Shown here: positions 40,339 to 58,056 of the stretch, in pieces
Layout of the letters: each line of letters opens with the position of its first letter
How positions within the stretch are numbered: the stretch's first letter is position 1
Source of the DNA: Acutalibacteraceae bacterium
GTDB lineage: Bacteria > Bacillota > Clostridia > Oscillospirales > Acutalibacteraceae
Direction of reading: 5' to 3'
Length of the DNA stretch: 64,000 nt
Assembly: GCA_045633485.1 (NCBI GenBank)
Contig: JAZQYL010000022.1
Span: 1,235 to 65,234 of the forward strand
Translations under genes and position numbers: made by a program
The notes under the pieces: generated by a model
Databases searched by the model: none
What the model was told of the DNA's origin: nothing
The model's input: the letters and a program-made list of their open reading frames with translations, nothing else

Positions 40339-43300
40339 TTTCCAGTACTTCCTCCTTATGATGCTTTTTTTGTTTAATATTTTTTACAAAAGCAGAAATT
40401 TTTGAAAACAAGAATTTTACAAATGATATTACCTTTGTAAAAATCAATTTTGCTATTTTAACAACTTGTTGCACAATTATTTTTGTCCATTTAATTAAGA
40501 AAGGTTTAATAACGTTAAATATCTTAACAAAAAACACCTTACATGCCACAAAAATTTTAACAACAAGTTTTGCTACAAAGGCAATAGAAATCTTAATTAC
40601 TGATATAACTTTAGCAAAAATCGGTTTTAAAATTTTTGCTGTGCTTTTAAATATAGGTTTACAAAAAGCTGCCATTTTATCGGTTACCGGCTTACAAAAA
40701 ACAACTATCTTATTCAAAATAGGTTTAATAAATTTTGAAATTTTTTGAATTAAAGGACTAACTAACGCTGAGATTTTATCGCATACAGGTTTTGTAAACT
40801 TAACGATATGTTGCTTAAACTTTTTAATAAGCAAAATTGCTGCTAAAACAACTGTTGCAAATATCGCAATTATCAAAACTAAAATACCGATATTAAATCC
40901 TTCTTTATTATCGTTTGTCTCTTCATTCTTTTGCGCATCAGGATCAAGCGCTTTTATACGTTGCTCGGCCGAAACAAGATCTGAATAGTTCTTTACAAGT
41001 GACTGTTGCTCAAGTGTTGCTATTTTTGAGTAAGCAGCACGTGCGCTTTCTACAAGACCCTTGTCGTCATAGCTAACTCTTTCTGGAATTGCCTTAATAG
41101 CGTTTATGGCATCAACCGCTACATCATCCGGCGCAGCAGGACCATCAATTACTAAATCAAAATACTGATTACAAATAAACGAATCGTATCCTACGCCGTT
41201 AATCGGACGTACCATTGTAAGCTTATTTTCAACCTTACCTACGTAGTCAACAAATGTTGCTCCGTAAAATACGTTAGAATACATCTCACCGGTTGCATTC
41301 CACATAAAGAACGGAATTATGCCCAAACCGTTTATCTGAACCTCGTTACCATCATAGTCGGTATAAGTTCCAAAATCACCCGTACCCGGGATATTCTCAA
41401 AACTACCGTAGTATGAAGGATCAAATTCTTCTTCAAAGTTTGGTACGGTATGACTACCAAAAGTAACCATATCAAGCATATTACAATCATAGAAAGCCTT
41501 GTGTCCGATTGCGGTAGTACTAAATGGCATTTTTACTCTGACAACATCGCTACCTGCAAAAGCATAAGCGGTAATACGTACGGTATCATCAGCAATAACA
41601 ACATCGTTGTTGTTTGTACCTGAATATGTTATAAGTTCCATTCCCTTTTCATTCATACAATAAAGTGAACCTTCAATAACAAATACGGTATCGCTTATTT
41701 CATAATTGTAAACCGTTACCTCTTTTTCTTTTCCATTTACTTTTTGCTTTTGTGTAGTGCTAAAAGGTTCGAGTTTACACATAGCAAACGGGTTGTCCGC
41801 AATCTTTTCAATATCTTTACCCAAAACAACTTTAAATGGTGTCAGGGTTTCTTTGATAAAAACATTTCTACCAATATTAACAGCAGCGGTAAGATCAGCT
41901 GATGTAATTGCTGTATATGCAAATGCATAATCACCAATGTTTTCCACACAGTTAAGATTATCAACTATGTCAAGCGGATCGCAATAAGAGAACGCGCCCT
42001 CACCTATCTGTTCGGTTTTTTCGCAAAACTTTACAGTTTTAAGCAAACGGTTAGATACAAATGCATACTTATCAATGTTTTCGGTTGCGGATACATCAAG
42101 AGTTTCTAATCCGCACTCCATAAATGCGTACTCGCCGATTGTTTCAACCTTGGAAAGATTTATACTCTTTAACGCATCACAACCTGCAAATGTATAGGGT
42201 TTAATTTCTTTTATATCATCACTTAATTCAACTTGAACAAGTTGACGACAATATGAGAACGCATATTCACCAAGAGTTTCTGCAGACGAAATATCGGCAT
42301 TTGTTATTTGCGGTCCGTGATATGTGTAATGATAATAACCATTTGAATTAACCGCTGCAACGGTCATATTTTCATCAAGACAAGCATAATACACATCGCC
42401 CGAAATCGCATAATCACCAATTTCTTTAACCTTTGATAAATCAATATTCTTAAGGCTTGATGTATTATAGAATGCCATTTTTTCAAGTTTTGCGCCCTCA
42501 CCTAAAGTAACGGTCTCAAGACTTGCGGCATTTGAAAACGCGTTTTCGCCGATTTGAGCATTTTTACCTATAGTAAGTGAGATTAATGGTGATGAAAATA
42601 CATATCTGAACAGTTTTTGTTCACCGTTCATATACATTTCTACCTTGAATGCTCTATCTTTGTCCATACTAAAGGCGTATTTTCCAATTTTAACATCATC
42701 GCCTATAACAACGGTTGTCAAATCTACGCATTCACTAAATGTTCCCTCTGCAATTTCCATCTTATCAGGAATTGTAACCGATGTTAATTTAGTAAACGAG
42801 AATGCATATTTGCCTATTTTTACCTTTTTATCAAGGTTCGGCATTGTAGTAATTGATGTTTCAAAAAATGCATAATCACCAATTTCTTTAAGTTCACCAA
42901 GAGATACCGAAATCAATCCCTCATTAGACGCAAGACCGTACTCACCAATTGCAGTTACCTTTTCCATCAAAACCGATGTAATTTTTTGGTTGTGTGAAAA
43001 AGCACCTTTAGCAATTTCATTAACCTTTTTACCACCTATATTATCATAGGTAAATTCGCCCTCAATAAGAGGTGATACGGCAATAAGTTTTTTACCGTCA
43101 GAAGAAAGTATATATGCCTTATCGTGAGCCTTAAAGTTTTTATTTCCTTTTTCAATTTCAAATTCTGAAATTTTTGTATCTCTGAATGCGAATACCCCGA
43201 TATCGTTAACATCAGGACCTATGGTAAGTTTTTTCATATCATCGCATTCGTAGAACATACCTTCAGGAAGAACTGAAGAATTTACATAAAACTCTTTAAG

Positions 43301-46300
43301 TGTTTCGCAGCTGGTAAATGCATAAGGACCGTATTTTACCTTTTTAGCATCAATTTTTACATCTTTTAGCTTTTTGCAGCCTGCAAATGCATATTGGCCA
43401 ACAGAATAAAGATTTTCACCAAGTTCAATACCTTTTAATTTTTGATTACCTGCAAATGCATAATCAGAAATTACACAAACAGATGGTAGTTTTAACGTAT
43501 CGCGTAAATCGCAATTTTCAAATGCGTTTTGGTTAATTATCTTTAGATTATTTTCGCCGCTGAAAGTAATTTTTTGAAGAGCAGTACAACCATAAAACGC
43601 ACCATAATCTATTGATTCAAGGGTTGATGGGAATACAACCTCTTCCAACGCAGTCAAATTAGCGAAGGCATAACTTGCAATGCTTTCTACACCCTCAGGT
43701 ATTACAACCTTTGTGATGGTATTATCACCAATAAACCAAGCCTTTGATGTTTCGGCATCGTCAAAAGCAAGTTCTTCCTCCGTTTTCATAATATATTCGA
43801 AATTAGAGAAGGCAAACTGACCGATCTGAGTTAAGGATAGATCCTCCGGTATATTAACAAGACCGCCGTTACCATAATAGTGTGTAAGACTTGCGCCTGT
43901 TGTCACATATGGATCCTTAACTTCAACATTAACAGTTTCAGAATAATATGTGCTCTTATCATCAAGCAATACCTTAACTGTGATAGAGGCAAAGCCTTCT
44001 GCTTGAGCTGTAACCAAACCTGAATTGTCAACCTTTACAATATTTTCATTACTGCTTTCAAACGATACAGATGTATCATTCTTAAAGAATGAATCTAACG
44101 AGAAGTTGAGCGCTACCTCTTCCGAAGGATACATTTCCAATTTGTAATTTCCTTCAAAGAAGTTTGTACTACCGGTATCACCTAATTTTTTATCTTCATT
44201 TTCAAGAATATAGTACGCCTTGTTGGTATAAAAACCATCTAATGTAAATACATCGGCAACCGGTTTATCATATCGGCGATATCCATCATCACCTTTTTCA
44301 AGAACAGTAACATTAAAGGTTATACTTTTATTGTTTAGCGGATCCTGTGCCTTGATAATCGCATTACCACTCTTAACCGCTACAAGTTTATTGTTAACAA
44401 CACGAACTACACTCGGTTTAGAAGAAGAATATTCTAATAACTCCGCCCACTCTGTATCGGGAACAATAACAGGTTCGAGTGTATATACCTCGTTTGGACT
44501 AAGAGTAATTCCGTCCTCAACACCTTCAAAGTAAAAGTCGGTAAAATCATCAGGAAGTGACAATTCATATGTTGCGTAATTCAGAGCATAGTCATATGCA
44601 TTAATTACGAACGTATTCTTAGTAGTAGCATTATTTTTAATATCGTAAATATAATCGGTAAGTTCATATGTAACCTTAGTTGTATCATTGCGTTCAGAAT
44701 AAACAGGTGTCATATACTGCTCTAATGTTTTCATAGCAGGACCAACATTACCGTCCGCATCAGCTTCTTCGGTAACATAACCAATTTGTGAACACATAGC
44801 ATAATGATTGTCATAAATCATTACATCAGCATATAATCTGTTTTTCTTTAAGGTTTTATCATATTCATATCTGTATTCCACATCGGTGATTGTGGGGGCT
44901 TCAAAGTCGGCAACAAGTGGGAATTCAAAAACATTGTTTTTATTTGTTTGAAGTCCGCCATCGCCGTAATCAACATAACCTACAAGTCTTACTGTATATT
45001 CACTATTATTTTCAAGATTATATTCGGTAGTGTCAAATTCTATTTTTACATTCGAAGGATAAATTGACGCACCACCGTCACTATAAGACTTGCGGATATC
45101 ATTTTCTACCTTTTCGAATACTACATCACCAGTAATGTCATCGGTTATTGTTATTTCAATTTTTGCAGCATTTCGTAATAGACCTGCCCAAACAAATCTT
45201 AGAGAATGTATTGTACCCACTTGGTTTGACAACGCAACATAATTTTCATTTGCAGAGATAACCATGTCATCAGGATCCTGCAAGAAATAATATGAACCAA
45301 GGTAGCTTACATAGTCATCACTAACGCCGCCTACAGGACGAGTAGCATATGCGTCGGCTTTTGTTTTATCTTCTTCATCAATACCATCATCAAGTTCATC
45401 AGCATTTGTATCATAGTATGTAAGGTCAAAAAGCGGAGCTTGTGTCCAATCACCATAAAATGCAAGATAAGGAACATTAAGATCAACCTTTGTACCGGAT
45501 TTTGCCTCTAAAGTAACAAATCCTTCAACATACATACCATTTTCAAACGACTTGTCCAAATACTCTTTATCTTCTTTACCAAGAGTAATCTTCACAGTAA
45601 CTTCTGTTTGACCGTTTTTCTTAACTCGTACGGTATTTTTATTCGATTTTTTGCCATTAATAGCCACAACCTTAACCTTTGCGCCGTCTAACAAACGCGC
45701 CTCTTCGGTAATGGTTGTTTCGCCTGCGGCAGTTTTGGTATCACTAACACCCTCGGTCATTACATACGCATCAATATCGTATGATACCGCATGTTTTGCG
45801 GTATTGTTTATGGTAAACGTCATGGTGTATTCGCCTGATTTTCTTGGATCATCACCAAGTTCAAGTTTGGCTTTATCTGTTATTTCACCATCTTCGTCTT
45901 TAACGGTTATATACGCTGGTGATTTAATAGAATTTGTAAGGTTTGCAAGACCTGCGCCCTGTTTTCTTACCGAGTACGGAAGACCATTTTTCGCAAGCGC
46001 AATATCTGCTGTAGACATAATCAAACAATTAACCATTGTGTTGACAGCTTGATTATCATCGGCAATTTCGGGATAATTTTCCACAACGTATTGACGAAGC
46101 AACACAACAACACCTGCATAGTTAGGACATGCCATTGATGTACCTGACAAACGGTCATAACTACCGCCGGTAATTGAAGAAAGTATGCTACCACCGTGAG
46201 CCGTAATTTCAGGTTTAATTTTAAGGTCTGGTGTAGGCCCCCACGATGAAAAGTCAGAAATAAATGGACCCGAAGTTTGCTTGCGGCTTATCTTTAAGGT

Positions 46301-47959
46301 ACCTTTGCCCTTAGCAGCAAGCAATTCACCATCGTCTTGTGAAATAGAACATACCGCAAGTGTCGCATCTCCAACATTCATTTTAATATCGCCGGATACA
46401 TTGTTATAAATTATAATACCTGCAGCGCCTTGCTGTTGCGCAATCATTGCCTTTTCTTCAAATGTGTTTGAACCACGGCGAACAAGCGCAATCTTACCCT
46501 CTACATTCATGCCTGTATAGTCGGCACTACGGCCAACGCCGGGTATTAACACATAATCAATCTTTATGGATTTTTTATCACCGAGTAAGGAATCGTAAAA
46601 ATTGTTTTCTTCTGCGGAACCATTTGTCGATTCAACAAAGTAAATAATTTTATTATCAAATTCAATATATGGTGTTTCTGCGCCGGCAATAGAAGCTACC
46701 GACATAACGCCGTCATAGGTTGAAGGCGAGCCAACAGTACCGGTATCGGGATTAGAGGTAAGACCTAAATTACCGTTCTTTTCTGAGCCATATGCTGAGC
46801 TATAACTGTTAGAAGCCGCTACAACCATACAGATACCAGAATCGCGAAGCTTATCATATATTCCGTCAACCGCTTCTTCATCGCTTTCACGGCTGAAACC
46901 ACAAGCAGTACCGATTGACATATTAATAACATCAACGCCCAAAACAATGCAGTCCTCAAGAGCAGCTAAAATCCAAGCGGTACGTGCGGTATCCATAACA
47001 TCGGAAAATATCTTCATGGATACAAGTTGAGCGTTAGGAGCAACGCCTCGTATTGTATCATCGTTACCAACAATTACACCCGATACATGAGTACCGTGAT
47101 TGTTATGTGTTGAATATGCATCAGAATCAACATCTGCATAGTCAAAGTTATATGGGATTTTTTCGTTTATATAAACATCATCAACCGTAAGTCCGTCTAA
47201 TTGCTCGCTTGCCACAGTATCCTTAATAACTGCAGCAACATCATCATATGTAAGACCCAATTTTTTGCTTGTAAAATTATCTGTCGAAAACGCAGTATGA
47301 TTTGAATCTATACCTGTATCAAGCACAGCAACAACCATACCTGAACCATCGTAACCCGAATCAGAGCTATCAAAAATGCCGGTATCAAAAACGTCAACGG
47401 CGTTTTCAACAAGTTCTGTTTCACAAGTATTGTATTCCTCGCCAACAATTATGTTCATATCGTCGCTTATGGAATCACAAATTTTCTCAAAGTCAGAAGC
47501 TTTAATAAGAAGCTCAAAACCATTTATTATAGTAGAATATTCTTCGCCTGTTTTATAAGAAATGTTTTTCTCATCAAGTATAGCAAGCACCGACTCCTTA
47601 CCATTGGCAAGAGACTGCTTTGCCACTTTAGCGTAATCACCATTTGAAGCAAAGTCTGATAAGCTCATTGTTTTATCAGTACCCTCATAAACATCAATAA
47701 CAGCCTTATCACCTGTTGTTATTATTACGGAAATTTCGTCATTGTCATTAATTGTTTCAGGCAATTGATAAACTTTCGTATCATCAAAATACTTTGAATA
47801 ATCTAGCGCTATATTATCTATTTTTTTAATATCGGAATTATAAGATTTATCCGATAATGCATAGATGCTCGACATTGGTAGTGATGCTGCCGCTATCACA
47901 ACAGACAATACTGCGGCTGACATACCTTTTAATAATTTTTGTAATTTTAAGCACTTCAT
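40322..47959 (-). CDS. Giant (2545 aa) membrane-anchored S8 subtilisin-like cell-envelope protease with PA domain, Ig-like domains, about 800 aa of BspA-type leucine-rich repeats, a TM helix and a Lys-rich periodic tail
   Basis: Signal peptide. Catalytic triad contexts VAVLDTGID (about 47320), HGTHVSG (about 47090) and SGTSMACP (about 46135). PA-like insert KIALVRRGSNTFEEKA...GAAGIIIYNN. Big_2-like segments at about 43930-44520. LRRs at 41460-43860. TM at about 40832-40900. Confidence 0.85.
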   Translation of the reverse strand: MKCLKLQKLLKGMSAAVLSVVIAAASLPMSSIYALSDKSYNSDIKKIDNIALDYSKYFDDTKVYQLPETINDNDEISVIITTGDKAVIDVYEGTDKTMSLSDFASNGDYAKVAKQSLANGKESVLAILDEKNISYKTGEEYSTIINGFELLIKASDFEKICDSISDDMNIIVGEEYNTCETELVENAVDVFDTGIFDSSDSGYDGSGMVVAVLDTGIDSNHTAFSTDNFTSKKLGLTYDDVAAVIKDTVASEQLDGLTVDDVYINEKIPYNFDYADVDSDAYSTHNNHGTHVSGVIVGNDDTIRGVAPNAQLVSMKIFSDVMDTARTAWILAALEDCIVLGVDVINMSIGTACGFSRESDEEAVDGIYDKLRDSGICMVVAASNSYSSAYGSEKNGNLGLTSNPDTGTVGSPSTYDGVMSVASIAGAETPYIEFDNKIIYFVESTNGSAEENNFYDSLLGDKKSIKIDYVLIPGVGRSADYTGMNVEGKIALVRRGSNTFEEKAMIAQQQGAAGIIIYNNVSGDIKMNVGDATLAVCSISQDDGELLAAKGKGTLKISRKQTSGPFISDFSSWGPTPDLKIKPEITAHGGSILSSITGGSYDRLSGTSMACPNYAGVVVLLRQYVVENYPEIADDNQAVNTMVNCLIMSTADIALAKNGLPYSVRKQGAGLANLTNSIKSPAYITVKDEDGEITDKAKLELGDDPRKSGEYTMTFTINNTAKHAVSYDIDAYVMTEGVSDTKTAAGETTITEEARLLDGAKVKVVAINGKKSNKNTVRVKKNGQTEVTVKITLGKEDKEYLDKSFENGMYVEGFVTLEAKSGTKVDLNVPYLAFYGDWTQAPLFDLTYYDTNADELDDGIDEEDKTKADAYATRPVGGVSDDYVSYLGSYYFLQDPDDMVISANENYVALSNQVGTIHSLRFVWAGLLRNAAKIEITITDDITGDVVFEKVENDIRKSYSDGGASIYPSNVKIEFDTTEYNLENNSEYTVRLVGYVDYGDGGLQTNKNNVFEFPLVADFEAPTITDVEYRYEYDKTLKKNRLYADVMIYDNHYAMCSQIGYVTEEADADGNVGPAMKTLEQYMTPVYSERNDTTKVTYELTDYIYDIKNNATTKNTFVINAYDYALNYATYELSLPDDFTDFYFEGVEDGITLSPNEVYTLEPVIVPDTEWAELLEYSSSKPSVVRVVNNKLVAVKSGNAIIKAQDPLNNKSITFNVTVLEKGDDGYRRYDKPVADVFTLDGFYTNKAYYILENEDKKLGDTGSTNFFEGNYKLEMYPSEEVALNFSLDSFFKNDTSVSFESSNENIVKVDNSGLVTAQAEGFASITVKVLLDDKSTYYSETVNVEVKDPYVTTGASLTHYYGNGGLVNIPEDLSLTQIGQFAFSNFEYIMKTEEELAFDDAETSKAWFIGDNTITKVVIPEGVESIASYAFANLTALEEVVFPSTLESIDYGAFYGCTALQKITFSGENNLKIINQNAFENCDLRDTLKLPSVCVISDYAFAGNQKLKGIELGENLYSVGQYAFAGCKKLKDVKIDAKKVKYGPYAFTSCETLKEFYVNSSVLPEGMFYECDDMKKLTIGPDVNDIGVFAFRDTKISEFEIEKGNKNFKAHDKAYILSSDGKKLIAVSPLIEGEFTYDNIGGKKVNEIAKGAFSHNQKITSVLMEKVTAIGEYGLASNEGLISVSLGELKEIGDYAFFETSITTMPNLDKKVKIGKYAFSFTKLTSVTIPDKMEIAEGTFSECVDLTTVVIGDDVKIGKYAFSMDKDRAFKVEMYMNGEQKLFRYVFSSPLISLTIGKNAQIGENAFSNAASLETVTLGEGAKLEKMAFYNTSSLKNIDLSKVKEIGDYAISGDVYYACLDENMTVAAVNSNGYYHYTYHGPQITNADISSAETLGEYAFSYCRQLVQVELSDDIKEIKPYTFAGCDALKSINLSKVETIGEYAFMECGLETLDVSATENIDKYAFVSNRLLKTVKFCEKTEQIGEGAFSYCDPLDIVDNLNCVENIGDYAFAYTAITSADLTAAVNIGRNVFIKETLTPFKVVLGKDIEKIADNPFAMCKLEPFSTTQKQKVNGKEKEVTVYNYEISDTVFVIEGSLYCMNEKGMELITYSGTNNNDVVIADDTVRITAYAFAGSDVVRVKMPFSTTAIGHKAFYDCNMLDMVTFGSHTVPNFEEEFDPSYYGSFENIPGTGDFGTYTDYDGNEVQINGLGIIPFFMWNATGEMYSNVFYGATFVDYVGKVENKLTMVRPINGVGYDSFICNQYFDLVIDGPAAPDDVAVDAINAIKAIPERVSYDDKGLVESARAAYSKIATLEQQSLVKNYSDLVSAEQRIKALDPDAQKNEETNDNKEGFNIGILVLIIAIFATVVLAAILLIKKFKQHIVKFTKPVCDKISALVSPLIQKISKFIKPILNKIVVFCKPVTDKMAAFCKPIFKSTAKILKPIFAKVISVIKISIAFVAKLVVKIFVACKVFFVKIFNVIKPFLIKWTKIIVQQVVKIAKLIFTKVISFVKFLFSKISAFVKNIKQKKHHKEEVLENETEN
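40325..40825 (-). repeat. 167-aa cytoplasmic tail built from about 11-residue Lys/Ile/Phe/Val periodic units
   Basis: KPILNKIVVFC / KPVTDKMAAFC / KPIFKSTAKIL / KPIFAKVISVI / KIFVACKVFFV / KFLFSKISAFV and similar. 35 Lys in 167 residues by my count, with almost no acidic residues until the last 10. Confidence 0.75.
41460..43860 (-). repeat. Protein-level BspA-type leucine-rich repeat array within the protease
   Basis: Dozens of about 23-aa units of the form ...I.IP..V..IG.YAF..C..L..V... (for example IGQFAFSNF, IASYAFANLTALEEV, IDYGAFYGCTALQKI, IGEYAFMECGLETL). Confidence 0.7.
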
Positions 47960-48145
47960 ATTTTTTATAAAGCTCCCTTATAATTTTGTTATACATACTA
48001 GATATATATATTCAATTTATTTTACCCTATTTTACTTAAAAAAGCAAGAACAAAATATATATAATATATATTTAATATATAAGATTTACATTTGGGGAAT
48101 TTTATGCTATAATTATTCAAATTCTTTAGTTTGGGGTAGTATGAC

Positions 48146-48574
48146 ATGACAAAAGAAAAGACTGTTTATTTTCGTAAAATATATAAAATTCTGCTAAGTG
48201 CGTCGATTATTATTGCCGGAATAAGCCTTATAGTCGGATGTGTTACAATATATTTTTCAGGCAACGGATATTCAAGACAATTAGTAGCAAGCACATTTTC
48301 CAAAATTAACATCCCCGTTTATTTGTGCTTGGCGCTAATTATAGGTGATATTATTTGGGAGTTGCTTTCGCCAACCGACAAAGATTTTAAATCGGTTAAA
48401 AAAATTAAGACCGAGAACAAACAACCCACAGATAGCAAACACCTTTTTATTATTAAGCTTTGTATTCTTGGTGTTGCCATAATCGCCTTGATAGGTGGTT
48501 TCTTAGCGGGTGGTTATAACGATGTTCTAACAAAAGCAGTTAATATCTGCACCGAATGTATCGGTCTTGGTTAG
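48146..48574 (+). CDS. Small polytopic membrane protein ending in a CxxC motif (CD1871A-like)
   Basis: Three hydrophobic segments. The C-terminus NICTECIGLG carries the CxxC at 48548-48559. It lies directly upstream of the 4Fe-4S membrane protein. Confidence 0.5.
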   Translation: MTKEKTVYFRKIYKILLSASIIIAGISLIVGCVTIYFSGNGYSRQLVASTFSKINIPVYLCLALIIGDIIWELLSPTDKDFKSVKKIKTENKQPTDSKHLFIIKLCILGVAIIALIGGFLAGGYNDVLTKAVNICTECIGLG

Positions 48575-48585
48575 GGAGTTGTATT

Positions 48586-50046
48586 ATGAATAAAATAATT
48601 GAAAAAATAAAAAAACTCAAACCCACAAGACGAAAAATAATTCAACTTTATACAGCACTACTTTTTAATGTGAATTTTAAAGGTTTTGTTTCGGGAAATA
48701 TTTATCAAGGCAACACAAAAATCGCCTGTATTCCAGGACTAAATTGCTATTCATGTCCCGGTGCCGTAGGTGCCTGCCCATTAGGCTCACTACAAGGCTC
48801 ATTTAGCGCAAACAAAAGTACATTGTTTTATGTGGGCGGTATATTGCTTCTTTACTCAATAATGTTTGGAAGGTTTGTTTGCGGTTGGCTTTGTCCGTTT
48901 GGACTTATACAAGAGCTCATATACAAAATCAAAACTCCAAAACTTAAAAAGAATCGAGCAACAAAAATATTATCATACTTTAAATATATTATACTGGCAT
49001 TTTTTGTTTTTATAATTCCTATTGCTTACGCTTTAAAAGATACTCCCTTCCCTGCTTTTTGCAAGTACATATGCCCGGCTGGAACACTTGAAGGCGGATT
49101 AAGTCTTCTGGCGAACAAAGTAAACGACAGTTATTTTTCAATGCTGGGTCCAATTTTTACATGGAAATTTTTATTACTTATAAGCATAGTTGTGGCTTGT
49201 ATATTTATTTTTAGAATGTTTTGCCGTTTTATTTGTCCACTTGGCGCTTTATACGGCTTGTTTAACAAAATTTCTATTTTTGGAATTAAACTTGATAATA
49301 GTAAATGTATTAACTGTAATTTGTGTAAAAACAAATGCAAAATGGACATTACCCATGTAGGCGACAGCGAGTGTATAAGTTGTGGCGAATGCATTGATGT
49401 TTGCCCTACCGATGCTATTGTTTGGAAAGGAATTAAAAAGAATAAAATTTCGACAGATGATATAATATCCCATAAAAAATCAAGAATAATTACACGAGCG
49501 ATATCTACAGTTTTAATGGTTGCCATTATCGTTACATCGTCAATTTATTTTTGGAAAGACAGTAGTACCAAAACAAATTACGGTACAGAGATTGGTGAGT
49601 TGTGTTACGGCGCTGAGCTCCCTGTTGTAACACCGGACGGTGTGAGTGATAACACAATTAATCCTGCGAAAACAGGCAAAATTACGATAATAAACTTTTG
49701 GGGAACTTGGTGTACTCCTTGTGTGAAAGAGCTTCCCTATTTCGACCAAATTGCAAGTGAATATACAGACGAAGTAACGGTTGTAGCGATTCATTCAAGC
49801 GCCAGCAAAGAAACCTCTACTGAGTATGTTAAAACACATTACCCCAACAGTAAACTTGTTTTTGCAAATGATATTCCCGATGAAAACGATGTATTTAATG
49901 GAAAATATTATTTAAATCTTGGTGGAAGCGGCGCATACCCATATACCGTAATAATCGATCAAGAAGGCGTAATACGTCAAATATTTGTTAAGGCTTTACA
50001 CTACGAAGATCTTAAGCAATCGGTGGAAAGTATATTAAAAGACTAA
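48586..50046 (+). CDS. NapH/MauN-like membrane polyferredoxin fused to a C-terminal TlpA/ResA-type thioredoxin domain
   Basis: CYSCPGAVGACPLG, FVCGWLCPFG, FCKYICPAG and FCRFICPLG; two ferredoxin motifs, CINCNLCKNKC and CISCGECIDVCP. These are followed by an extra TM helix and then INFWGTWCTPCVKELPYF. AGGGAG RBS precedes the ATG at 48586. Confidence 0.75.
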   Translation: MNKIIEKIKKLKPTRRKIIQLYTALLFNVNFKGFVSGNIYQGNTKIACIPGLNCYSCPGAVGACPLGSLQGSFSANKSTLFYVGGILLLYSIMFGRFVCGWLCPFGLIQELIYKIKTPKLKKNRATKILSYFKYIILAFFVFIIPIAYALKDTPFPAFCKYICPAGTLEGGLSLLANKVNDSYFSMLGPIFTWKFLLLISIVVACIFIFRMFCRFICPLGALYGLFNKISIFGIKLDNSKCINCNLCKNKCKMDITHVGDSECISCGECIDVCPTDAIVWKGIKKNKISTDDIISHKKSRIITRAISTVLMVAIIVTSSIYFWKDSSTKTNYGTEIGELCYGAELPVVTPDGVSDNTINPAKTGKITIINFWGTWCTPCVKELPYFDQIASEYTDEVTVVAIHSSASKETSTEYVKTHYPNSKLVFANDIPDENDVFNGKYYLNLGGSGAYPYTVIIDQEGVIRQIFVKALHYEDLKQSVESILKD

Positions 50047-50047
50047 C

Positions 50048-50088
50048 AAAAAAACACAAACAGCAATTAATTGCTGTTTGTGTTTTTT
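50048..50088. terminator. Bidirectional terminator between convergent units
   Basis: Stem acacaaacagcaa / ttgctgtttgtgt, loop ttaa, flanked by an A-run and a T-run. Confidence 0.8.
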
Positions 50089-50095
50089 AAATTGT

Positions 50096-51676
50096 TTAGA
50101 AATAAACAAGTGGGCCTTGATTAATGTTTTTGTCAGCACTACTTGGCTTATCCTCAGGAACTAGAGGTTCATCAGGTTCTTCTGGAACAACAGGTTCATC
50201 GGGTTCTTCCGGAACCTTAGGTCCTAAAGTCACATTCCAACCATTAAGATATTGCATCAGTAAACCGTAATCTTTATTATTGATTGCCTTATCATCATTA
50301 ACATCGGCTGTTTCGGTAATAATTTCAACATCCCAGCCGTTAAGATATTGCATCAACAAACCTAGGTCCTTATTGTTAATGTTTCTGTCGCCGTTTATAT
50401 CGCCGATTTCAAAGGGCGCTCTTACAAATCCACACACATTGCAGGTTGTATCAGCATTGTCATCATATACGTGAGCATCGGCATCAACCGATATGATAAC
50501 GTCGGCTTCGCGTGATAATTCTTCATTACATACTGTACAGTATACAACCATATCACACAATCCTTCGTTTGTGCAGTTTGCAGGAGTTTTAATCTCCTGT
50601 GTGGGCGCACCTTCGGTATGAGGTAATACATCGGTAATAACAACCTCACGAGATATTTCCTCGCCACATACTGTGCAAATGATTATATTTTCATAAGAAC
50701 CGTTTTGTGTGCAGGTAGCTGGAACCTCTTTTTCTTTGGTTGGTGCGCTTTCTGTGTGTTTAAAGAAACACATTGCTGTCACATCTTCATCATAATAACA
50801 AGCAAATAACCATGCGTCATCTGAATCATAAATAAAAGCATCCTCGCCACTATACCATCTGTTAGAATCACCGACTTCTTTGAAAATTTCAATCAAATCG
50901 ATGGTAAGCGGATAATAAAATGACGGTATTGTACCGGTTTCATCATCGGTAAGCGCATCTAAATATTCATACAAAGCAGCAGTGTAATCAACCTTGCGTG
51001 TTACCTTGTTGTCATCATCGTAATATACAGCCGACACTTTACCATTTGAAACCATACTATAAAGCGAAATCATATATTCATCATGTAAATTTGCGAAAAG
51101 CACAGGGCCATTCTCATCATTAAGATGATAGCATCCGTCACTGCCTAAAACAGCATTATCTATTATTTCATCTTCAAAATCAATGTAATTGTCAGAAAGC
51201 GACTCAACATCTACATTAGATGGCATTGTGAATTTTTTAGGAGATTGAACGTTTTGGTAAATTTCCCACGGTATTTCGCCACTTAAATCAAGGTCTGTGC
51301 GTGTAACTGTAATGGTAGCCTCAGCAAGCTCTGAATTTAAAGCAATCATTATTGCCTGACCTATATCATTACATTCCCAAGTTATGGTAGTGGCGTTTAC
51401 ATTATCTGCAGTAGGGTCATTTTGAACCCACATATCAATATAACTTACAATACCAATAAGACCATCATTTGTTGTAATGGTGTATTCGCCAATATTGGTA
51501 GGTGCAAGTATGTATACTGTATATTCAGTTGAAGTTTCTACAGTATACACGTTAGTGCCTTCCGTTAGTACAGTCGAACTAATAGTATAATTTTCTTCCG
51601 CCATAACCGTCATTGGCAATAATAAAAGGGCCATTATTAGCATTGCGCTTACAGCGATTTTAAATATTTTCTTCAT
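50096..51676 (-). CDS. Secreted dockerin-bearing protein with Cys-rich modules and the shared YH-NGP/WL-C-YY domain
   Basis: Signal peptide; the domain CYHLNDENGPV...AWLFACYY; modules PATCTQNG...CTVCGEE and PANCTNEG...CTVCNEE; a canonical two-segment dockerin (about 50222-50412); a P/E-rich tail. Confidence 0.7.
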   Translation of the reverse strand: MKKIFKIAVSAMLIMALLLLPMTVMAEENYTISSTVLTEGTNVYTVETSTEYTVYILAPTNIGEYTITTNDGLIGIVSYIDMWVQNDPTADNVNATTITWECNDIGQAIMIALNSELAEATITVTRTDLDLSGEIPWEIYQNVQSPKKFTMPSNVDVESLSDNYIDFEDEIIDNAVLGSDGCYHLNDENGPVLFANLHDEYMISLYSMVSNGKVSAVYYDDDNKVTRKVDYTAALYEYLDALTDDETGTIPSFYYPLTIDLIEIFKEVGDSNRWYSGEDAFIYDSDDAWLFACYYDEDVTAMCFFKHTESAPTKEKEVPATCTQNGSYENIIICTVCGEEISREVVITDVLPHTEGAPTQEIKTPANCTNEGLCDMVVYCTVCNEELSREADVIISVDADAHVYDDNADTTCNVCGFVRAPFEIGDINGDRNINNKDLGLLMQYLNGWDVEIITETADVNDDKAINNKDYGLLMQYLNGWNVTLGPKVPEEPDEPVVPEEPDEPLVPEDKPSSADKNINQGPLVYF

Positions 51677-53195: not shown

Positions 53196-53804
53196 TTATT
53201 TTATATCACTTACATTTTTAATGGTTGTATGTTTATAGTTATCAGCCGTAAAGAAAGCAAATATTTTTTCAAATACACCTTCCTCAGTTATGCTACCCAT
53301 ATGCATAAAAGCGATTGAGCCATAACGATCTATAACAACCGTTGTCGGAAATCCTTGTAAAGAAAAAGCGGAAATCCAATCCTGCTCTCCCTTTATCATA
53401 GGCAATGTAATATTATTTTGTTCTGCAAATTTTTGAATATCTCTTTGCTCATCATCAGTCGGATTAATAGCGAAAACAATAACATCATCATCGTACTTAT
53501 CAGCTGCTGCTTGCAAATAAGGAAATTCCATCTGACAGGGTCCGCAGCCGACAAACCAAAAGTTAAGAACTATCGCTTCTTTTTCTTTGAAAACCTCAGA
53601 GAACTTATATGTGTTACCGTTTATATCCGTAAGACTGTGATTACCCATTAAATCACCAAGTTTATAATCACACAAATTAAGTGATGGATTATCCACAAGG
53701 CTGACTTTTCTTTCCGTAGCTTTACAACCAATTAACGAAAGAACAAGTAATAAACATATAATTATTGAAACAATTTTTAAAAAATATCTGTTCATATTAA
53801 TCAC
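53196..53804 (-). CDS. TlpA/ResA-family thiol:disulfide oxidoreductase lipoprotein
   Basis: Lipobox LIGC; LNFWFVGCGPCQMEFPYL with the CGPC at 53535-53546. A GTG start overlaps the upstream stop (GTGA); an alternative ATG is at 53795. Confidence 0.8.
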   Translation of the reverse strand: MINMNRYFLKIVSIIICLLLVLSLIGCKATERKVSLVDNPSLNLCDYKLGDLMGNHSLTDINGNTYKFSEVFKEKEAIVLNFWFVGCGPCQMEFPYLQAAADKYDDDVIVFAINPTDDEQRDIQKFAEQNNITLPMIKGEQDWISAFSLQGFPTTVVIDRYGSIAFMHMGSITEEGVFEKIFAFFTADNYKHTTIKNVSDIK

Positions 53805-55039
53805 TCAGCATAACAACACATAAATAACCATGCTATTTCTGCGTTTATATCTGTCATATTATTGCCCGAATCATCTTTAAACATATAGGTTGGGTTTTCA
53901 ATATCCCACCAACCAACATATTCACCACGTTGTTGAATAATATATTTTAAATCTTCTGTAAGTGGGTAAACACCATTGTCTTCGTCAACGTATTCTATAT
54001 ATTCAAGCAAGCACTCCGAATAACTTTCTTTTTTGATAAAGTTATTGTTTTCATCAAAGAAATACTTATTAACACCTGATCGATCAAGTATTGTTTTAAA
54101 ACAAGCAATGTACTCGTTATCCTCGGCAAGGCGAACAAGCACTATCGGTCCATTTGCATCGTTCAAATGATAATAACCTTCATCTTCATTCAAAACCAAT
54201 TTATATGCATCGGTTGAAGCGGTTAAATCAAATTCTTTTATTTCAAGATTATTAGGTAAAATATAGTCTTGAAGTTCAACCGATTTTTGATAGACAGTCC
54301 ATGGTTCATCTTCAACCGTCTTTATAGCATCTCCTAATCTATTAATACCAATAATACAGTTTTTCGCTTTTTTATCAGCATCAACACCAATTACAAACGT
54401 TGATGTACCAGTACCATTCGTACCAATCATACCTGATTTAACATTTATGGTAAATTTATTATCCTTTACCTCAGTTGCCGAATTGCTTTGAACAAAGTGC
54501 GGTGCGCCGTAATAGCCTATTGTAGCATTTTTGCCTTCCGGAATCGAAAACTCATAATTTCCTTCCTTACTAGGTGTGAAAAGGAAATAATTACGACTTC
54601 CCGACTTCAGTTCTACATAGGTACAACCCGTATCTATTGTATACGCATCATATTCATCAGAACCAACATATAATTTTTCGGGCTTCCCTGTGATTTTATA
54701 GGCTAAAATAACGTCAACCTCATTTTTTCGTGGAGAAAGCTTTATGTTTTTATCATAATGATATTGGATTTTCTCATCAGCAAACTGAAGAACAACATCA
54801 TACTTTCCGTTAATTAATGATTTTATTGCGGCACCCTGCTCGTTGCAAGATTGCATTGCAACCTGTTTACCATCCTGCATAAACTTCACTACTATACCTG
54901 ATGAATAAGGATTGCCTAGAGCATCCTTAACATTCACCGTGTAATCCTTTTCACCCTTGCCGCATGCGGCAAGAGTGAAAAGAGAAATTGTAATGATTAT
55001 TACTAGAAGGATTGAAATTAATCTTTTAATGCTTTTCAT
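53801..55039 (-). CDS. Lipoprotein: beta-sandwich, jelly-roll-like domain and the shared YH-NGP/WL-C-YY domain
   Basis: Lipobox LAAC after MKSIKRLISILLV. The start is 55039 or 55048; the track start at 55114 overlaps the upstream gene. C-terminal GYYHLNDANGPIV...AWLFMCCYAE. Confidence 0.55.
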   Translation of the reverse strand: MKSIKRLISILLVIIITISLFTLAACGKGEKDYTVNVKDALGNPYSSGIVVKFMQDGKQVAMQSCNEQGAAIKSLINGKYDVVLQFADEKIQYHYDKNIKLSPRKNEVDVILAYKITGKPEKLYVGSDEYDAYTIDTGCTYVELKSGSRNYFLFTPSKEGNYEFSIPEGKNATIGYYGAPHFVQSNSATEVKDNKFTINVKSGMIGTNGTGTSTFVIGVDADKKAKNCIIGINRLGDAIKTVEDEPWTVYQKSVELQDYILPNNLEIKEFDLTASTDAYKLVLNEDEGYYHLNDANGPIVLVRLAEDNEYIACFKTILDRSGVNKYFFDENNNFIKKESYSECLLEYIEYVDEDNGVYPLTEDLKYIIQQRGEYVGWWDIENPTYMFKDDSGNNMTDINAEIAWLFMCCYAE

Positions 55040-55061
55040 TTTTATCATACTTTCATTAAAA

Positions 55062-57908
55062 TTAATTGTTTGGACCAAGAGAATCATAATAATAACAAAT
55101 CTTGAGCCATGCATTTTCTACATCGTCAAACGTATATTTGTCCATAAGTTGTTGTAAAAGTTCAGCAAGTTCTTCATCAACAACTACACAACCATCAATC
55201 TCAGTTCCCGATTTGTCAATTTTACTTATATACTTTTTAATATCTTCAGTGCAATCATCACCATCACCATGATATCTACCGGCAAACACATCATCTAACT
55301 GATATATTTCAGCATTCTCATCATATTCGTCGCCCCAAAGTTTTTTAAGATATTCTCTTGTTTTTTCTATATCGTTGTCGTTCTGCTTCAAGTATGCCAA
55401 AATTTCACCATCAGTTTCTGACTTACTGAAATCAAAACCGCCCATTTGAATCATCTGAACAATAGATTGACTAAACACAGGTGTGATGCCTGTAAAGTCG
55501 GCATAAATCAAACTTCCATCTTTACTATCGTAATATTTTCCGTCTTTTAGTTTTGGTTTAATACCACCTGTGATAATATCATACATTGCATTACCGGTAG
55601 CGTCGGTATCATATGTGAAATATCCCGGAGCTGCCAATCTTAAAAGTTTGTATGTTGCACCAATAAATTCAACATCATAATTAATTGTACCGGTTGCATA
55701 TACATCCCAAAACGCCATATTTATATAATACGGTGTTCCGGCATTCATATAGTAAACCATAGAACAGTTTTTATCATCGGCAAACATTCTTTCGTCGTGC
55801 TCATATGTATATACGAGTTTACCATCTTTGTCAAAAATCCAAGCTTCAATGCCCTCTTCGTAATCGCTCTTTGAAGTAAAGCGATACACACCTGACTGTG
55901 ATGGCACAAACTCGGCAAACATACCTCTTGGAATTATAGCTCGGTCATAGTAGAAATTATTGCTCGGTATGTTTTTACCTAGAGTTACTTTAAAAGCACT
56001 AAATGTTGCAAGACCTTTAATTGGGTCTTCAAGCTGTGTAGCACCCTTACCATATGCTTGATAATACTTACACATCTTAAGCCATTCATTGTCATCATCT
56101 TCAAAACCTGCAACTCTAGCTACCTGCTTAAGCATCTCGGCTAGTTCTTTATTAACAGTACAAACACCATTGATTCTTGAGTTAGATGCATATGAGAAAT
56201 ATTGCACCATACCAAGACCATTTTCTTCCTTTTTGTCGTAAAGACTTACACCATCTTCATCGGCATCGCCTTCTGTAACGATTGTTTGAACCGATTCTTC
56301 CTCGCTAAATGGTGTAAAGCCCATAAGATCAGCAAGTAGTAAAGGACCGTTTGCGTTACCTACATGATAGTAACCATCATTTTCGTTAAATACTACATCA
56401 ACATAAGTGTACTTGTCGTTTTCATCAGCAACTGCTGCATAACGAGGTAGATATGTTGCTGTGTCGATTTGTGACTGATCTACAACACGCATATTATCAA
56501 TATAAACCGTATCATCTCCATCAGAACCATCTTCGTCCTTAAGGAAGCATAGCGCAATCTCGTACGTACCGTCTTTATCCGCAACGCAAGGATAACATGA
56601 TTTCCATTCTTCAGGAGAAGATACGCCGGATATTTGGAAAATATCCTCATCATTTACTATGACGTACATAATGTCGCAACCTAATTCCGATGAAACAAGG
56701 TAGTCAAATCCCACTGCCTGACCAGCTTTAAGTTCAATATCCGCATATAGGATTGCATATGAACTATCAATACCAGTATTTGAAGCTTTTACACAAGAGC
56801 GTCCGGATTTTTCGGAAATTATAAAGGGCCAGATAAACTCTGCATTTTCATCTTCGGTTTCGGGTCTGTAGTTCACGTTTATGTTACCTACATTTATTGT
56901 AGCAGCAATTTCGTCAGATGACGGCATTTCATAGGTTGGTTTAATTTGTGTTACAAGATCACCTATACCATTTTCACATACCTTTTGGTTATACGGATCA
57001 GCTGTAAAATGGTCAAACGCACATACCCAAGGGCGCTTACTTGTAATAGCGCCTGATTCTAATACGCAAATAACACCATATTGGTCAATAAATACCGATG
57101 TAGGATAACCTTGTACACTAAATGTGTTTGACCAAGATGCAGGACATGCAGCCATATTAAAAGAATAACCATATTGTTTTTGAAATCCGTCAACTACATT
57201 GTTGTCTTCCATTGGATTAATGGCGATGATTTCGACATCATCCTTATAATCGTTGTAAACTTCCTCCATAAGCGGGAATTCTTCTAAACACCAGCTACAT
57301 GTTGTATACCAAAAGTTAAGAACAACCAACTTTTTGCTCTTTAAAACTTCAGAAAGTTTGAGCTCCGTGCCATCCGGTTTCATGACTGTAAAGTCATACA
57401 TTACATCACCAAGTCCCAATGTGGCGGTTGAAATATCCTCGTCAGTAATAAGCGATGATGTTAAAACTATATCAACTTTATGATCGTTAAATTTATAAAA
57501 CTTTTCTACATTATAACCCTTTGGAACCGATTGTAATTCAATTACATAATTCGAACTTTCATCAAGATTAAATGTTGCTTCACCCTTGTCGTTTGTTTTT
57601 GTGTAGTCAATCATATCACTCATAGTATCATCGGTATATATGTAAGCATCAATGCCCGACATAGGCATACCGCCTGCAGTTTTAATACTCAATGAATAAA
57701 GAGTGTCACCTTGAGGTCTATCAAATTCAGTTTCATTATCCTTGCCTTTAAAATTGAATAAACCCGGAACAAAAATTACTCCACAAACTATTGCAACAAC
57801 TAAAGCCGCAGCAATAATTATAAAAAGAACTTTTTTAGCCTTTACAACTTCCCAAGCCTTTTTGAACAGTTTGCCAATTTTGTTAAAGAAAGCTTTTAAT
57901 TTTTCCAT
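55062..57908 (-). CDS. Signal-anchored 948-aa modular protein with a beta-sandwich, a TlpA-type thioredoxin, jelly-roll-like domains and two copies of the shared domain
   Basis: AGGAGG RBS precedes the ATG at 57908. The TM helix is VLFIIIAAALVVAIVCGVIFV. The thioredoxin motif LNFWYTTCSWCLEEF has its CSWC at 57288-57299. The shared domain occurs at about 56050-56385 and 55065-55545. Confidence 0.7.
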   Translation of the reverse strand: MEKLKAFFNKIGKLFKKAWEVVKAKKVLFIIIAAALVVAIVCGVIFVPGLFNFKGKDNETEFDRPQGDTLYSLSIKTAGGMPMSGIDAYIYTDDTMSDMIDYTKTNDKGEATFNLDESSNYVIELQSVPKGYNVEKFYKFNDHKVDIVLTSSLITDEDISTATLGLGDVMYDFTVMKPDGTELKLSEVLKSKKLVVLNFWYTTCSWCLEEFPLMEEVYNDYKDDVEIIAINPMEDNNVVDGFQKQYGYSFNMAACPASWSNTFSVQGYPTSVFIDQYGVICVLESGAITSKRPWVCAFDHFTADPYNQKVCENGIGDLVTQIKPTYEMPSSDEIAATINVGNINVNYRPETEDENAEFIWPFIISEKSGRSCVKASNTGIDSSYAILYADIELKAGQAVGFDYLVSSELGCDIMYVIVNDEDIFQISGVSSPEEWKSCYPCVADKDGTYEIALCFLKDEDGSDGDDTVYIDNMRVVDQSQIDTATYLPRYAAVADENDKYTYVDVVFNENDGYYHVGNANGPLLLADLMGFTPFSEEESVQTIVTEGDADEDGVSLYDKKEENGLGMVQYFSYASNSRINGVCTVNKELAEMLKQVARVAGFEDDDNEWLKMCKYYQAYGKGATQLEDPIKGLATFSAFKVTLGKNIPSNNFYYDRAIIPRGMFAEFVPSQSGVYRFTSKSDYEEGIEAWIFDKDGKLVYTYEHDERMFADDKNCSMVYYMNAGTPYYINMAFWDVYATGTINYDVEFIGATYKLLRLAAPGYFTYDTDATGNAMYDIITGGIKPKLKDGKYYDSKDGSLIYADFTGITPVFSQSIVQMIQMGGFDFSKSETDGEILAYLKQNDNDIEKTREYLKKLWGDEYDENAEIYQLDDVFAGRYHGDGDDCTEDIKKYISKIDKSGTEIDGCVVVDEELAELLQQLMDKYTFDDVENAWLKICYYYDSLGPNN

Positions 57909-57971
57909 AACTCCTCCTAAATAAAAGACAATTTTTTTGTGGTAGATACAATCCATCCAATTATTCAACTT

Positions 57972-58001
57972 ATTGTACCATACAATAAGCGTTATCGTCA
58001 A
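57972..58001 (-). promoter_or_regulatory. Candidate sigma-A promoter of the secreted-thioredoxin operon
   Basis: On the minus strand: TTGACG (58001-57996), 18-nt spacer, TGgTACAAT extended -10 (TACAAT at 57977-57972). Confidence 0.45.
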
Positions 58002-58019
58002 CAAAAAATTACAATAAAT

Positions 58020-58056
58020 TAAAAAAATATCCCGATTTATTGCAAATCGGGATATC
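58020..58056 (-). terminator. Rho-independent terminator after the radical SAM gene
   Basis: Stem atatcccgattt / aaatcgggatat followed on the minus strand by a T-run. It overlaps the stop codon. Confidence 0.6.

Follow-up and report, generated by a model that had tools for sequence, protein, structure and literature searches.

The locus and its two genes

The window analysed here, a stretch of 64,000 nucleotides (nt) from an Acutalibacteraceae contig, carries two adjacent forward-strand genes that are the subject of this study. The first, the partner gene (48146-48574), encodes a protein of 142 amino acids (aa) with three predicted helices (residues 15-33, 56-74 and 100-118) and the C-terminal tail GGYNDVLTKAVNICTECIGLG, which holds a CTEC motif (Cys135 and Cys138; 48548-48559) 4 residues from the C-terminus. 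The second, the fusion gene (48586-50046, stop codon included), encodes a 486-aa protein in which a NapH-like membrane module is followed by a domain with two [4Fe-4S] motifs, a fifth transmembrane helix (helix 5), and a ResA/TlpA-like thioredoxin. Re-reading of the open reading frames (ORFs) bore out the coordinates that an earlier sequence-only reading of this DNA had given for both genes, and also its statement that the partner, terminating in CTEC, ends 11 nt upstream of the fusion. That reading had described the partner as small and polytopic, a description that stands and is refined here to three predicted helices and a tail that resembles the CD1871A family.

A putative ribosome-binding site read from the sequence, AGGGAG (48573-48578, forward strand), lies 7 nt 5' of the ATG codon at 48586. 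The mechanical ORF of the fusion opens at 48556, but the start at 48586 is favoured by this ribosome-binding site and by all homologues. About 33 nt 5' of the partner gene, inside the divergent AT-rich intergenic region 47960-48145, there is a forward-strand promoter-like site (48085-48113) composed of TTTACA, a 17-nt spacer with TG, and TATAAT, a consensus match only (11/12). Directly 3' of the fusion stop codon lies a bidirectional terminator-like hairpin of 18 bp (50049-50088), again a consensus match only. The two signals flank the gene pair and in this way suggest that partner and fusion form a self-contained two-gene operon.

Domain organization and conserved cysteines of the fusion protein

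The fusion begins with a four-helix membrane module (residues 1-235; 48586-49290, forward strand as for all features of the fusion gene) that was delineated by two matches to Fer4_5 (E 3e-18 in Pfam), by the NCBIfam model TIGR02163, by alignment with NapH, and by hydropathy. Pfam placed 4Fe-4S dicluster families at about residues 236-286 and Redoxin, AhpC-TSA and Thioredoxin families at residues 345-472. Against NCBIfam, the fusion scored 78.1 bits on TIGR02163 (NapH/MauN; cutoff 213) over residues 16-279, 61.1 bits on NF007013 (NapH; cutoff 234), and 62 bits on the ResA model (cutoff 170); its C-terminus was nearest to ResA, StoA, DsbE and TlpA. Because the NapH scores lie so far below the family cutoffs, the profiles identify the fusion as a relative within the NapH superfamily and not as a NapH.

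Two of the cysteine motifs of the membrane module are the canonical CX3CP motifs of the superfamily. CGWLCP (residues 99-104; 48880-48897) falls at the cytoplasmic end of transmembrane helix 2 (TM2) and aligns with CSWVCP of Escherichia coli NapH, and CRFICP (213-218; 49222-49239) falls at the cytoplasmic end of TM4 and aligns with CGHICP. Together with the two ferredoxin motifs, these are the only motifs common to the fusion and E. coli NapH. Two further motifs have no counterpart in E. coli NapH and are insertions in the loops that join TM1 to TM2 and TM3 to TM4: the loop-1 cluster C48-x5-C54-x2-C57P-x5-C64P (48727-48777) and a third CX3CP, CKYICP, in loop 3 (159-164; 49060-49077), both on the predicted outer face. 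The sequence-only reading had listed the motifs correctly, and all are present in the ORF. Its description of all four membrane motifs as NapH/MauN-style has to be revised, however, since alignment with E. coli NapH leaves two of them canonical and makes the other two family-specific outer-loop insertions.

Downstream of the membrane module, the two [4Fe-4S] motifs (C241, C244, C247, C251 and C263, C266, C269, C273-P; 49306-49407) match Fer4 and Fer4_7 and are predicted to be cytoplasmic. Helix 5 (residues 305-323; 49498-49554) has a hydropathy of 1.93 and forms part of a helix at residues 290-323 in the structural model. It leads to the thioredoxin-fold domain of the ResA/TlpA/CcmG type (residues 334-486; 49585-50043), with active site WCTPCVKELP, of which WCTPC (residues 375-379, with C376 and C379) occupies 49708-49722.

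Alignments that span 39-100% identity revealed ten invariant cysteines in the membrane module (C48, C54, C57, C64, C99, C103, C159, C163, C213 and C217), and the eight ferredoxin cysteines were likewise invariant. In the thioredoxin active site, the second cysteine was invariant and the first nearly so; E382, P384 and P452 of the same domain did not vary. All 239 full-length homologues retained the loop-1 motif, the three CX3CP motifs, both ferredoxin motifs and at least one CxxCxxE.P site, and with them the 10 membrane-module cysteines, the 8 ferredoxin cysteines and the CxxC. Active sites among homologues were CTPC (185), CGPC (86) or CAPC (38); variants with two thioredoxin domains were common and those with three were rare. 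Thioredoxin-fold active sites with an xP dipeptide, such as these three, are of the reducing type. A peroxiredoxin reading of the domain was discarded: the AhpC-TSA match reflects a common fold, and the active site is of the thioredoxin type, WCxPC.

One further cysteine, C340 (49603-49605), stands in the motif G-x-L-C-Y-G at the start of the thioredoxin domain. It is invariant in the clade of the window and in both domains of two-domain variants, and is missing from relatives at 39-45% identity, which have a TlpA-like 'PDF' segment in its place.

Distribution of the fusion

The exact fusion protein is on record from an NCBI contig. A word-indexed search with the fusion yielded at least 8000 scored candidates, the listed top 120 of which all had the full architecture, and a second search seeded by relatives at 39-45% identity had the same outcome. 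When 1.84 billion representatives were searched exhaustively with a profile, 888 clusters (50% identity) matched at E <= 1e-30, and a pattern scan of one genome per GTDB species confirmed at least 598 loci. Homologues carry generic names in their sources, such as 'redoxin family protein', '4Fe-4S binding protein' and 'thiol-disulfide isomerase/thioredoxin/ferredoxin'. The sequence-only reading had named beforehand an assembly or frameshift artefact of two genes as an outcome that would undo its interpretation; thousands of homologues of the same architecture and the exact protein on record exclude such an artefact, and the fusion is genuine and widespread.

Locus comparisons were made on the best 80 of the at least 598 loci, with 10 kb on either side of each. 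Almost all of these 80 belong to gut or rumen Clostridia (Oscillospiraceae, Faecousia, Lachnospiraceae and Christensenellales-like bins), and they include bins assigned to Faecalibacterium, Agathobacter, Ruminococcus, Mogibacterium and Oscillibacter.

The CXXC-tailed partner

An ORF with the same tail as the partner lies immediately upstream of the fusion and on the same strand in the window and in 79 of the 80 loci, the exception being a locus truncated at the 5' side, and often overlaps the fusion gene by a few bases. The CXXC-tailed protein is consequently an obligate neighbour of the fusion in every locus with an intact 5' flank, which gives broad support to the pairing that had been noticed in the window alone. 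Its tail is strongly conserved. Cysteines occur at positions -8 and -5 from the C-terminus in 80/80 sequences, glutamate at -6 in 79/80, and the terminal G-L-G in 78-80 of the 80; D-V-L-x-K-A is found at -17 to -12, and the tail of the window's partner is the consensus of the 80 loci. The constant distance from the second cysteine to the C-terminus suggests a tail that would insert into a defined pocket.

The last 38 residues of the partner match NF040920 (CD1871A family CXXC motif-containing protein), with 31.2 bits against a cutoff of 32; relatives of the partner score 40-65 bits, and stand-alone peptides of 44-47 aa score 62-65 bits. NF040920 is a named NCBI family to which no function is assigned, and it supplies the RefSeq name of a gene that adjoins a '4Fe-4S binding protein' in Peptoclostridium acidaminophilum. 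Relative to this family, the partner in the window has two extra N-terminal helices and most Oscillospiraceae relatives have four. The part upstream of the tail varies accordingly, from one helix in peptides of 44-52 aa, to three in the window, to five in the proteins of about 260 aa of most Oscillospiraceae; in a hydropathy screen, most relatives had 1, 3 or 5 helices and nine had 2, 4, 6, 7 or 8. For these N-terminal helices, neither a Pfam family nor a relative in the PDB was found.

A profile of the tail matched 1170 proteins, many of them of 40-80 aa and named 'thioredoxin' by NCBI. Annotation of the partner is uneven between records, with lengths of 45-50 aa in some and about 260 aa in others. 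For example, an Agathobacter contig holds a 50-aa NCBI 'thioredoxin' (P0242) at a place where the open frame (L003:9225-9995) extends to 256 aa with five predicted helices and is homologous to the long partners. In the literature on Clostridioides difficile, CD1871 appears as a conjugative-transposon gene in one paper and as an ABC permease gene in another, with functional data in neither.

Split and extended versions

The thioredoxin and the membrane module also occur as separate genes. In locus L089, a lipoprotein TlpA-like redoxin (WCTWC) is followed by a 46-aa peptide (...NLCLECIGIG) and then by an unfused NapH-like gene. In locus L090, the order is a 44-aa peptide, a NapH-like gene, and a Sec-type TlpA-like lipoprotein with an in-frame TGA at its first active-site cysteine. 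The peptides of both loci score 62-65 bits on NF040920. On a megaplasmid of Peptoclostridium acidaminophilum (L092), genes annotated by RefSeq as 'TlpA disulfide reductase family protein', 'CD1871A family CXXC motif-containing protein' and '4Fe-4S binding protein' lie within 3 kb. A redoxin may also accompany an intact pair: in locus L081, the fusion is preceded by a 47-aa peptide and this in turn by a secreted redoxin (WCPPC), and in locus L084 a 582-aa redoxin is divergent from the pair. Finally, locus L091 has the peptide and a NapH-like gene with no redoxin nearby. The unfused NapH-like proteins of L089 to L092 are among those recovered by the representative search, which are of 280-310 aa, have the same outer-loop cysteines and lack helix 5 and the thioredoxin. 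Secreted TlpA-like redoxins and the fused thioredoxin are thus related by fusion or fission, and the three components are linked.

The module can also be extended at its other end. A 789-aa protein of the representative library (P0489) carries a GltD-like NAD(P)H oxidoreductase (Fer4_20 plus Pyr_redox_2) N-terminal to the same NapH-like module, with the outer-loop cysteines kept, and this arrangement gives a hint of electron entry from the cytoplasm.

Two of these loci have features of their own. The redoxin gene of L090 (2130-2786, forward strand; TGA at 2469-2471, within ..LNVWTTT*PSCITEIP..) probably encodes a selenocysteine-containing UxxC redoxin, which gene callers split into products of 113 and 95 aa; a 7-bp hairpin begins 22 nt past the TGA, in a fold that is not significant (z -1.4). 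In L081 (8006-11882, forward strand), three genes come after the redoxin-peptide-fusion operon in one contig family, namely HydF and a pair of radical-SAM genes of which one has a BATS domain, and these downstream genes resemble the [FeFe]-hydrogenase maturases HydF, HydE and HydG.

Predicted topology and structure

Hydropathy placed the helices of the fusion at about residues 18-36 (weak), 80-98, 128-150, 195-213 and 305-323. Counts of lysine plus arginine, averaged over 74 sequences, were 5.9 in the 17 residues of the N-terminus, 2.9 in the 44 of loop 1, 6.0 in the 29 of loop 2, 2.4 in the 43 of loop 3, and 15.9 in the ferredoxin region; a basic stretch precedes helix 5, and the segment after it has a net charge of -5.7. 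Under the positive-inside rule, this bias places the ferredoxin domain inside and the thioredoxin outside, and the predicted topology has the N-terminus inside together with the ferredoxin domain and loops 1 and 3 outside together with the thioredoxin. In the partner, family-wide counts of 4.1 lysines and arginines before the last helix and 1.6 after it place the tail outside as well. The outer face is therefore predicted, from these charge patterns, to carry six cysteines of the fusion, the CXXC of the partner, and the CxxC of the thioredoxin. Brondijk et al. (2004) are reported to have described an E. coli NapH of four helices with both termini in the cytoplasm, and the topology predicted for the fusion agrees with this N-in, C-in arrangement.

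The sequence-only reading had argued that helix 5 puts the thioredoxin on the opposite side of the membrane from the ferredoxin motifs. Charge bias across the family predicts the same, and the extracytoplasmic location predicted for the thioredoxin would fit its separately encoded counterparts, which bear a signal peptide or a lipobox.

AlphaFold2 was run twice on the fusion, with 26 and with 74 sequences. The thioredoxin domain (residues 334-486), with a predicted local distance difference test (pLDDT) score above 90, was the sole confident part of both models. It superimposed with a template modeling score of about 0.8 on DsbE, ResA, TlpA, CcmG and Etrx1 in Foldseek (3gl3, 4nmu, 1su9, 1jfu and 3kh7), with FetE and TlpA-ScoI complexes also among the matches, and all structural matches of this domain were extracytoplasmic reductases or proteins. 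Profile alignment with PDB entries showed WGTWCxPCxxExPY to be common to the domain and ResA. For the membrane part, neither profile nor fold searches of the PDB yielded a NapH-like membrane structure; they returned only thioredoxins and soluble ferredoxins.

Relationship to known systems

The fusion shares with NapH, NosR and RdhC (PceC) a four-helix module with CX3CP motifs after TM2 and after TM4, and with NapH and NosR a C-terminal cytoplasmic domain with two [4Fe-4S] clusters. In the 'NapH-like' extracytosolic electron-transfer systems (PMC8238504), the module is likewise combined with an extracytoplasmic redox carrier. The carrier is different, however: in the fusion it is a C-terminal ResA/TlpA thioredoxin behind helix 5, whereas NapH, NosR and RdhC systems use an N-terminal flavin mononucleotide (FMN)-binding domain or a cytochrome or NapG partner. 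An obligate CXXC-tailed peptide and six invariant outer-loop cysteines are also features of the fusion system and not of NapH, NosR or RdhC. Genes of the napG/napA, mau, nos and rdh types were not found in the window or among the conserved neighbours of the 80 loci, nor were FMN_bind (PF04205) and ApbE found in the fusion or its conserved neighbours.

With DsbD, CcdA and ScsB the likeness would be one of role, namely the supply of reducing equivalents to extracytoplasmic thioredoxins of the TlpA/ResA/CcmG type, and DsbD and ScsB also have fused periplasmic thioredoxin-fold domains. DsbD and CcdA are nonetheless unrelated to the fusion in sequence and membrane fold (no match to PF02683), and are fed by cytoplasmic thioredoxin, whereas input to the fusion would come through Fe-S centres from ferredoxin or NAD(P)H. 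The fusion system could thus be an analogue of DsbD/CcdA and not a member of that family. The absence from the window of a ccdA- or dsbD-like gene, remarked in the sequence-only reading, was upheld: PF02683 had no match in the fusion, the partner, or 10 scanned membrane-protein ORFs of the window (a set that leaves out ORF 3263-5650, of 795 aa and 2 predicted helices), and none among the conserved neighbour clusters of the 80 loci.

The chemistry that would be needed resembles, by analogy only, that of ferredoxin-thioredoxin reductase (FTR) and of the CCG-domain heterodisulfide reductases (HdrB, DsrK), in which one-electron Fe-S donors reduce the disulfide of a cysteine pair next to a cluster. 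Those enzymes are cytoplasmic or sit on the cytoplasmic face of the membrane and do not work across it, and Pfam and NCBIfam scans revealed no homology between them and the fusion. VKOR-thioredoxin fusions and DsbB likewise join or pair a polytopic membrane redox module with an outward thioredoxin fold, but they are quinone-dependent oxidases without an Fe-S domain and have an unrelated membrane fold. MdrA, considered as a possible relative, belongs to an AhpD-like soluble family and is unrelated.

Literature searches found no published description of the fusion or of the system that it forms with its CXXC partner, in keeping with the statement in the sequence-only reading that no characterised example was known. 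Meheust et al. (2021; PMC8238504) compiled NapH-like modules that are joined to FMN-binding domains and distinguished extracytosolic carriers of three classes (cytochromes, thioredoxin-like proteins and flavinylated proteins), but their account includes no NapH-like module linked to a thioredoxin. Thiol reduction in the bacterial envelope is at present attributed to the DsbD/CcdA relay, which cytoplasmic thioredoxin feeds, and the DsbD route is the only one named in a 2026 review of disulfide maintenance. The novelty here would lie in a conduit of the NapH type that has a thioredoxin as its output and a CXXC peptide as a subunit, and the system stands a fair chance of being a distinct class of envelope disulfide reductase.

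Proposed function and alternatives

We consider it reasonably likely that the two genes encode a transmembrane disulfide reductase that would carry electrons from the cytoplasm to thioredoxin-fold proteins on the outer face. The cytoplasmic domain with its two [4Fe-4S] clusters would accept electrons from a low-potential donor such as reduced ferredoxin, or from NAD(P)H in relatives with the N-terminal GltD-like domain. The canonical CX3CP pair, at the cytoplasmic ends of TM2 and TM4, would receive these electrons next and hand them across the membrane to the six family-specific cysteines, which lie in two outer loops that may be re-entrant. The tail of the partner (...NICTECIGLG) would plug into this outer site, as a dithiol/disulfide shuttle or as a source of extra ligands, and the tethered ResA/TlpA-type domain (WCTPC), once reduced, would reduce neighbouring TlpA-domain proteins and oxidised surface proteins. 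The architecture, its conservation, the pairing with the partner and the link to secreted redoxins are demonstrated; we infer that electrons flow, in which direction and from which donor, and what chemistry the membrane cysteines perform. We lean towards a thiol relay on the outer side and an FTR-like junction of Fe-S cluster and disulfide on the inner side. The outer thiol relay is favoured because NosR contains only about 8 Fe per protein, with disulfide chemistry at CX3CP judged likelier than a cluster (PMC5928378), and because an outer Fe-S cluster would be hard to assemble in a Gram-positive cell.

Electrons might instead run inward, the outward thioredoxin oxidising extracytoplasmic thiols and the cysteine array passing electrons to the Fe-S domain or to a membrane acceptor, as an analogue of DsbB or of the VKOR-thioredoxin proteins. 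The latter oxidases are an established precedent for a membrane redox module joined to an outward thioredoxin, and cysteine-rich secreted proteins abound at the locus (for example, the dockerin protein at 50096-51676 with its repeated CxxC pairs). We regard this reversal as unlikely all the same, given that the domain resembles ResA, TlpA and CcmG, with CxPC and the reductase signature CxxCxxE.P and not CPHC, and that the hosts are strictly anaerobic gut and rumen Clostridia with no terminal oxidant evident in the locus. Moreover, the fusion with a GltD-like NAD(P)H input argues for the outward direction, and rubrerythrin and Fur-family genes near the module at some loci fit an antioxidant, reducing role.

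Homology with NapH, which includes two CX3CP and two [4Fe-4S] motifs in the same order, raises another alternative, that of a quinol dehydrogenase. NapH has been proposed as a quinol-oxidising subunit (PMC5928378, PMC8238504), and the module could similarly exchange electrons with menaquinol while the ferredoxin domain only docks a cytoplasmic partner. We hold this to be distinctly unlikely, with 78 bits on the NapH/MauN model against a cutoff of 213, no nap, nos or rdh context in the window or its conserved neighbours, and six extra outer cysteines and a CXXC peptide that have no counterpart in NapH. The midpoint potential of menaquinol (about -75 mV) makes it too weak a reductant for TlpA-type disulfides by established values, and quinone synthesis is not known in many of these Clostridia. 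The least probable of the readings is metal handling, in which the outer face with its many cysteines and the TlpA-like domain would act on copper or iron at the surface as reductant or chaperone, in the manner of the cupric reductase CcoG, of TlpA/Sco or of FetE. CcoG belongs to the same polyferredoxin superfamily (a weak NCBIfam match), but this match is confined to the ferredoxin motifs; L084 encodes a copper ATPase and a CsoR-like repressor close to the module and FetE and TlpA-ScoI are among the structural matches, but the conserved neighbours across the 80 loci include neither metal transporters nor metal chaperones and are further TlpA-domain and surface proteins.

Several points weigh against a transmembrane disulfide reductase itself. 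The electron transfer is proposed from sequence, and the topology is predicted from hydropathy, charge bias and homology. In both AlphaFold2 models, the membrane part and all cysteine loops have pLDDT below 50-70, which makes the cysteine geometry unreliable. By analogy with the approximately 8 Fe of NosR, the CX3CP motifs may not bind clusters (PMC5928378), and it would be unusual for a Gram-positive cell to assemble Fe-S clusters on the outside of its membrane. The proposal would also have to account for the coupling of two-electron thiol to one-electron Fe-S chemistry and for the crossing of some 30 angstroms by electrons. The pair in L091 with no nearby redoxin indicates that the core pair may have wider or other roles, and a CcdA may be encoded elsewhere in the genome, beyond the 64 kb of the window.

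A broader form of the disulfide reductase proposal is possible, though on balance we would not yet rely on it. In this form, the system would constitute a third, mechanistically distinct class of transmembrane disulfide reductase besides DsbD/CcdA, in which a NapH-type module driven by ferredoxin or NAD(P)H, with a cysteine array completed by a 45-aa CXXC peptide, turns Fe-S electrons into an outer-face dithiol; it would be a main route of surface-thiol reduction in many gut Clostridia and would reveal the role of CX3CP in NapH, NosR and RdhC. That role is an old question (PMC5928378) that now becomes testable, and the thioredoxin output and the CXXC peptide partner point to thiol chemistry for the motif. 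If a ferredoxin-fed Fe-S route is true, it would change the view of how strict anaerobes bring reducing power to their surface. Carriers of the module include gut commensals of very high abundance, among them bins assigned to Faecalibacterium, Agathobacter, Blautia, Ruminococcus and Oscillospiraceae, and tolerance of surface oxidation bears on colonisation by such organisms. In addition, three generic names ('redoxin family protein / 4Fe-4S binding protein'; 'CD1871A family CXXC protein' or 'thioredoxin'; and 'TlpA family protein') could be annotated as one system.

Genomic neighbourhood

Two TlpA domains that the sequence-only reading had placed in a neighbouring operon were located on the reverse strand. 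One is a TlpA/ResA-like lipoprotein (53196-53804) with lipobox LIGC and active site CGPC, a candidate downstream acceptor. The other lies in a protein of about 950-998 aa (55062-58058) that has an N-terminal anchor, an Ig-like region, a TlpA-like domain (CSWC) and a large uncharacterised C-terminal region, and that is conserved as a neighbour in 17 loci. With the fusion, these make up the only three thioredoxin-like ORFs of the window, all of them between 48.5 and 58 kb. A custom hidden Markov model of the thioredoxin domain detected one or more extra TlpA-like genes within 10 kb in 27 of the 80 related loci and in the window, a count that leaves out three raw entries that were the fusion gene itself.

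About 20 loci have the synteny of the window. On the divergent side, the order comprises a protein of about 450 aa and one of about 2500 aa (S8 peptidase, PA, Fn3 and BspA-type leucine-rich repeats (LRR); 40322-47959 in the window), and downstream on the opposite strand it continues with an Ig-like protein and two others, the first of about 520 aa and the second, which holds a TlpA domain, of about 1000 aa. In the window, the divergent region (39037-47959, reverse strand) holds a giant protein of 2545 aa with an S8 subtilase, PA, Fn3-like domains, about seven BspA-type LRR stretches, and a hydrophobic lysine-rich C-terminal tail; beside it is a 433-aa protein that matched no Pfam family. The position of the giant protein is kept in 20 related loci and that of the 433-aa protein in 10, and their association with the module could reflect either a functional link or inherited synteny.

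Rubrerythrin is encoded near the module in several loci (L084:11265-12138; neighbour cluster 10, e.g., L050:6096-6734), together with a Fur-family regulator in L084, and such neighbours would fit an oxidative-stress context.

Three secreted or anchored proteins encoded on the reverse strand of the window (50096-51676, 53801-55114 and 55062-58058) were grouped by single-linkage BLAST clustering through an unannotated domain that they have in common, and are possible clients of the thiol system. In the first of these, a type I dockerin is accompanied by CxxC motifs in three pairs (CTQNG...CTVCGEE, CTNEG...CTVCNEE and CNVCGF). Another reverse-strand protein, at 61735-63972, has Big_3 repeats, a cohesin and a type I dockerin. 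The domain content of the two dockerin proteins indicates a putative cellulosome-type surface organisation in the source organism, the DNA of which is that of low-GC (about 36%) Clostridia.

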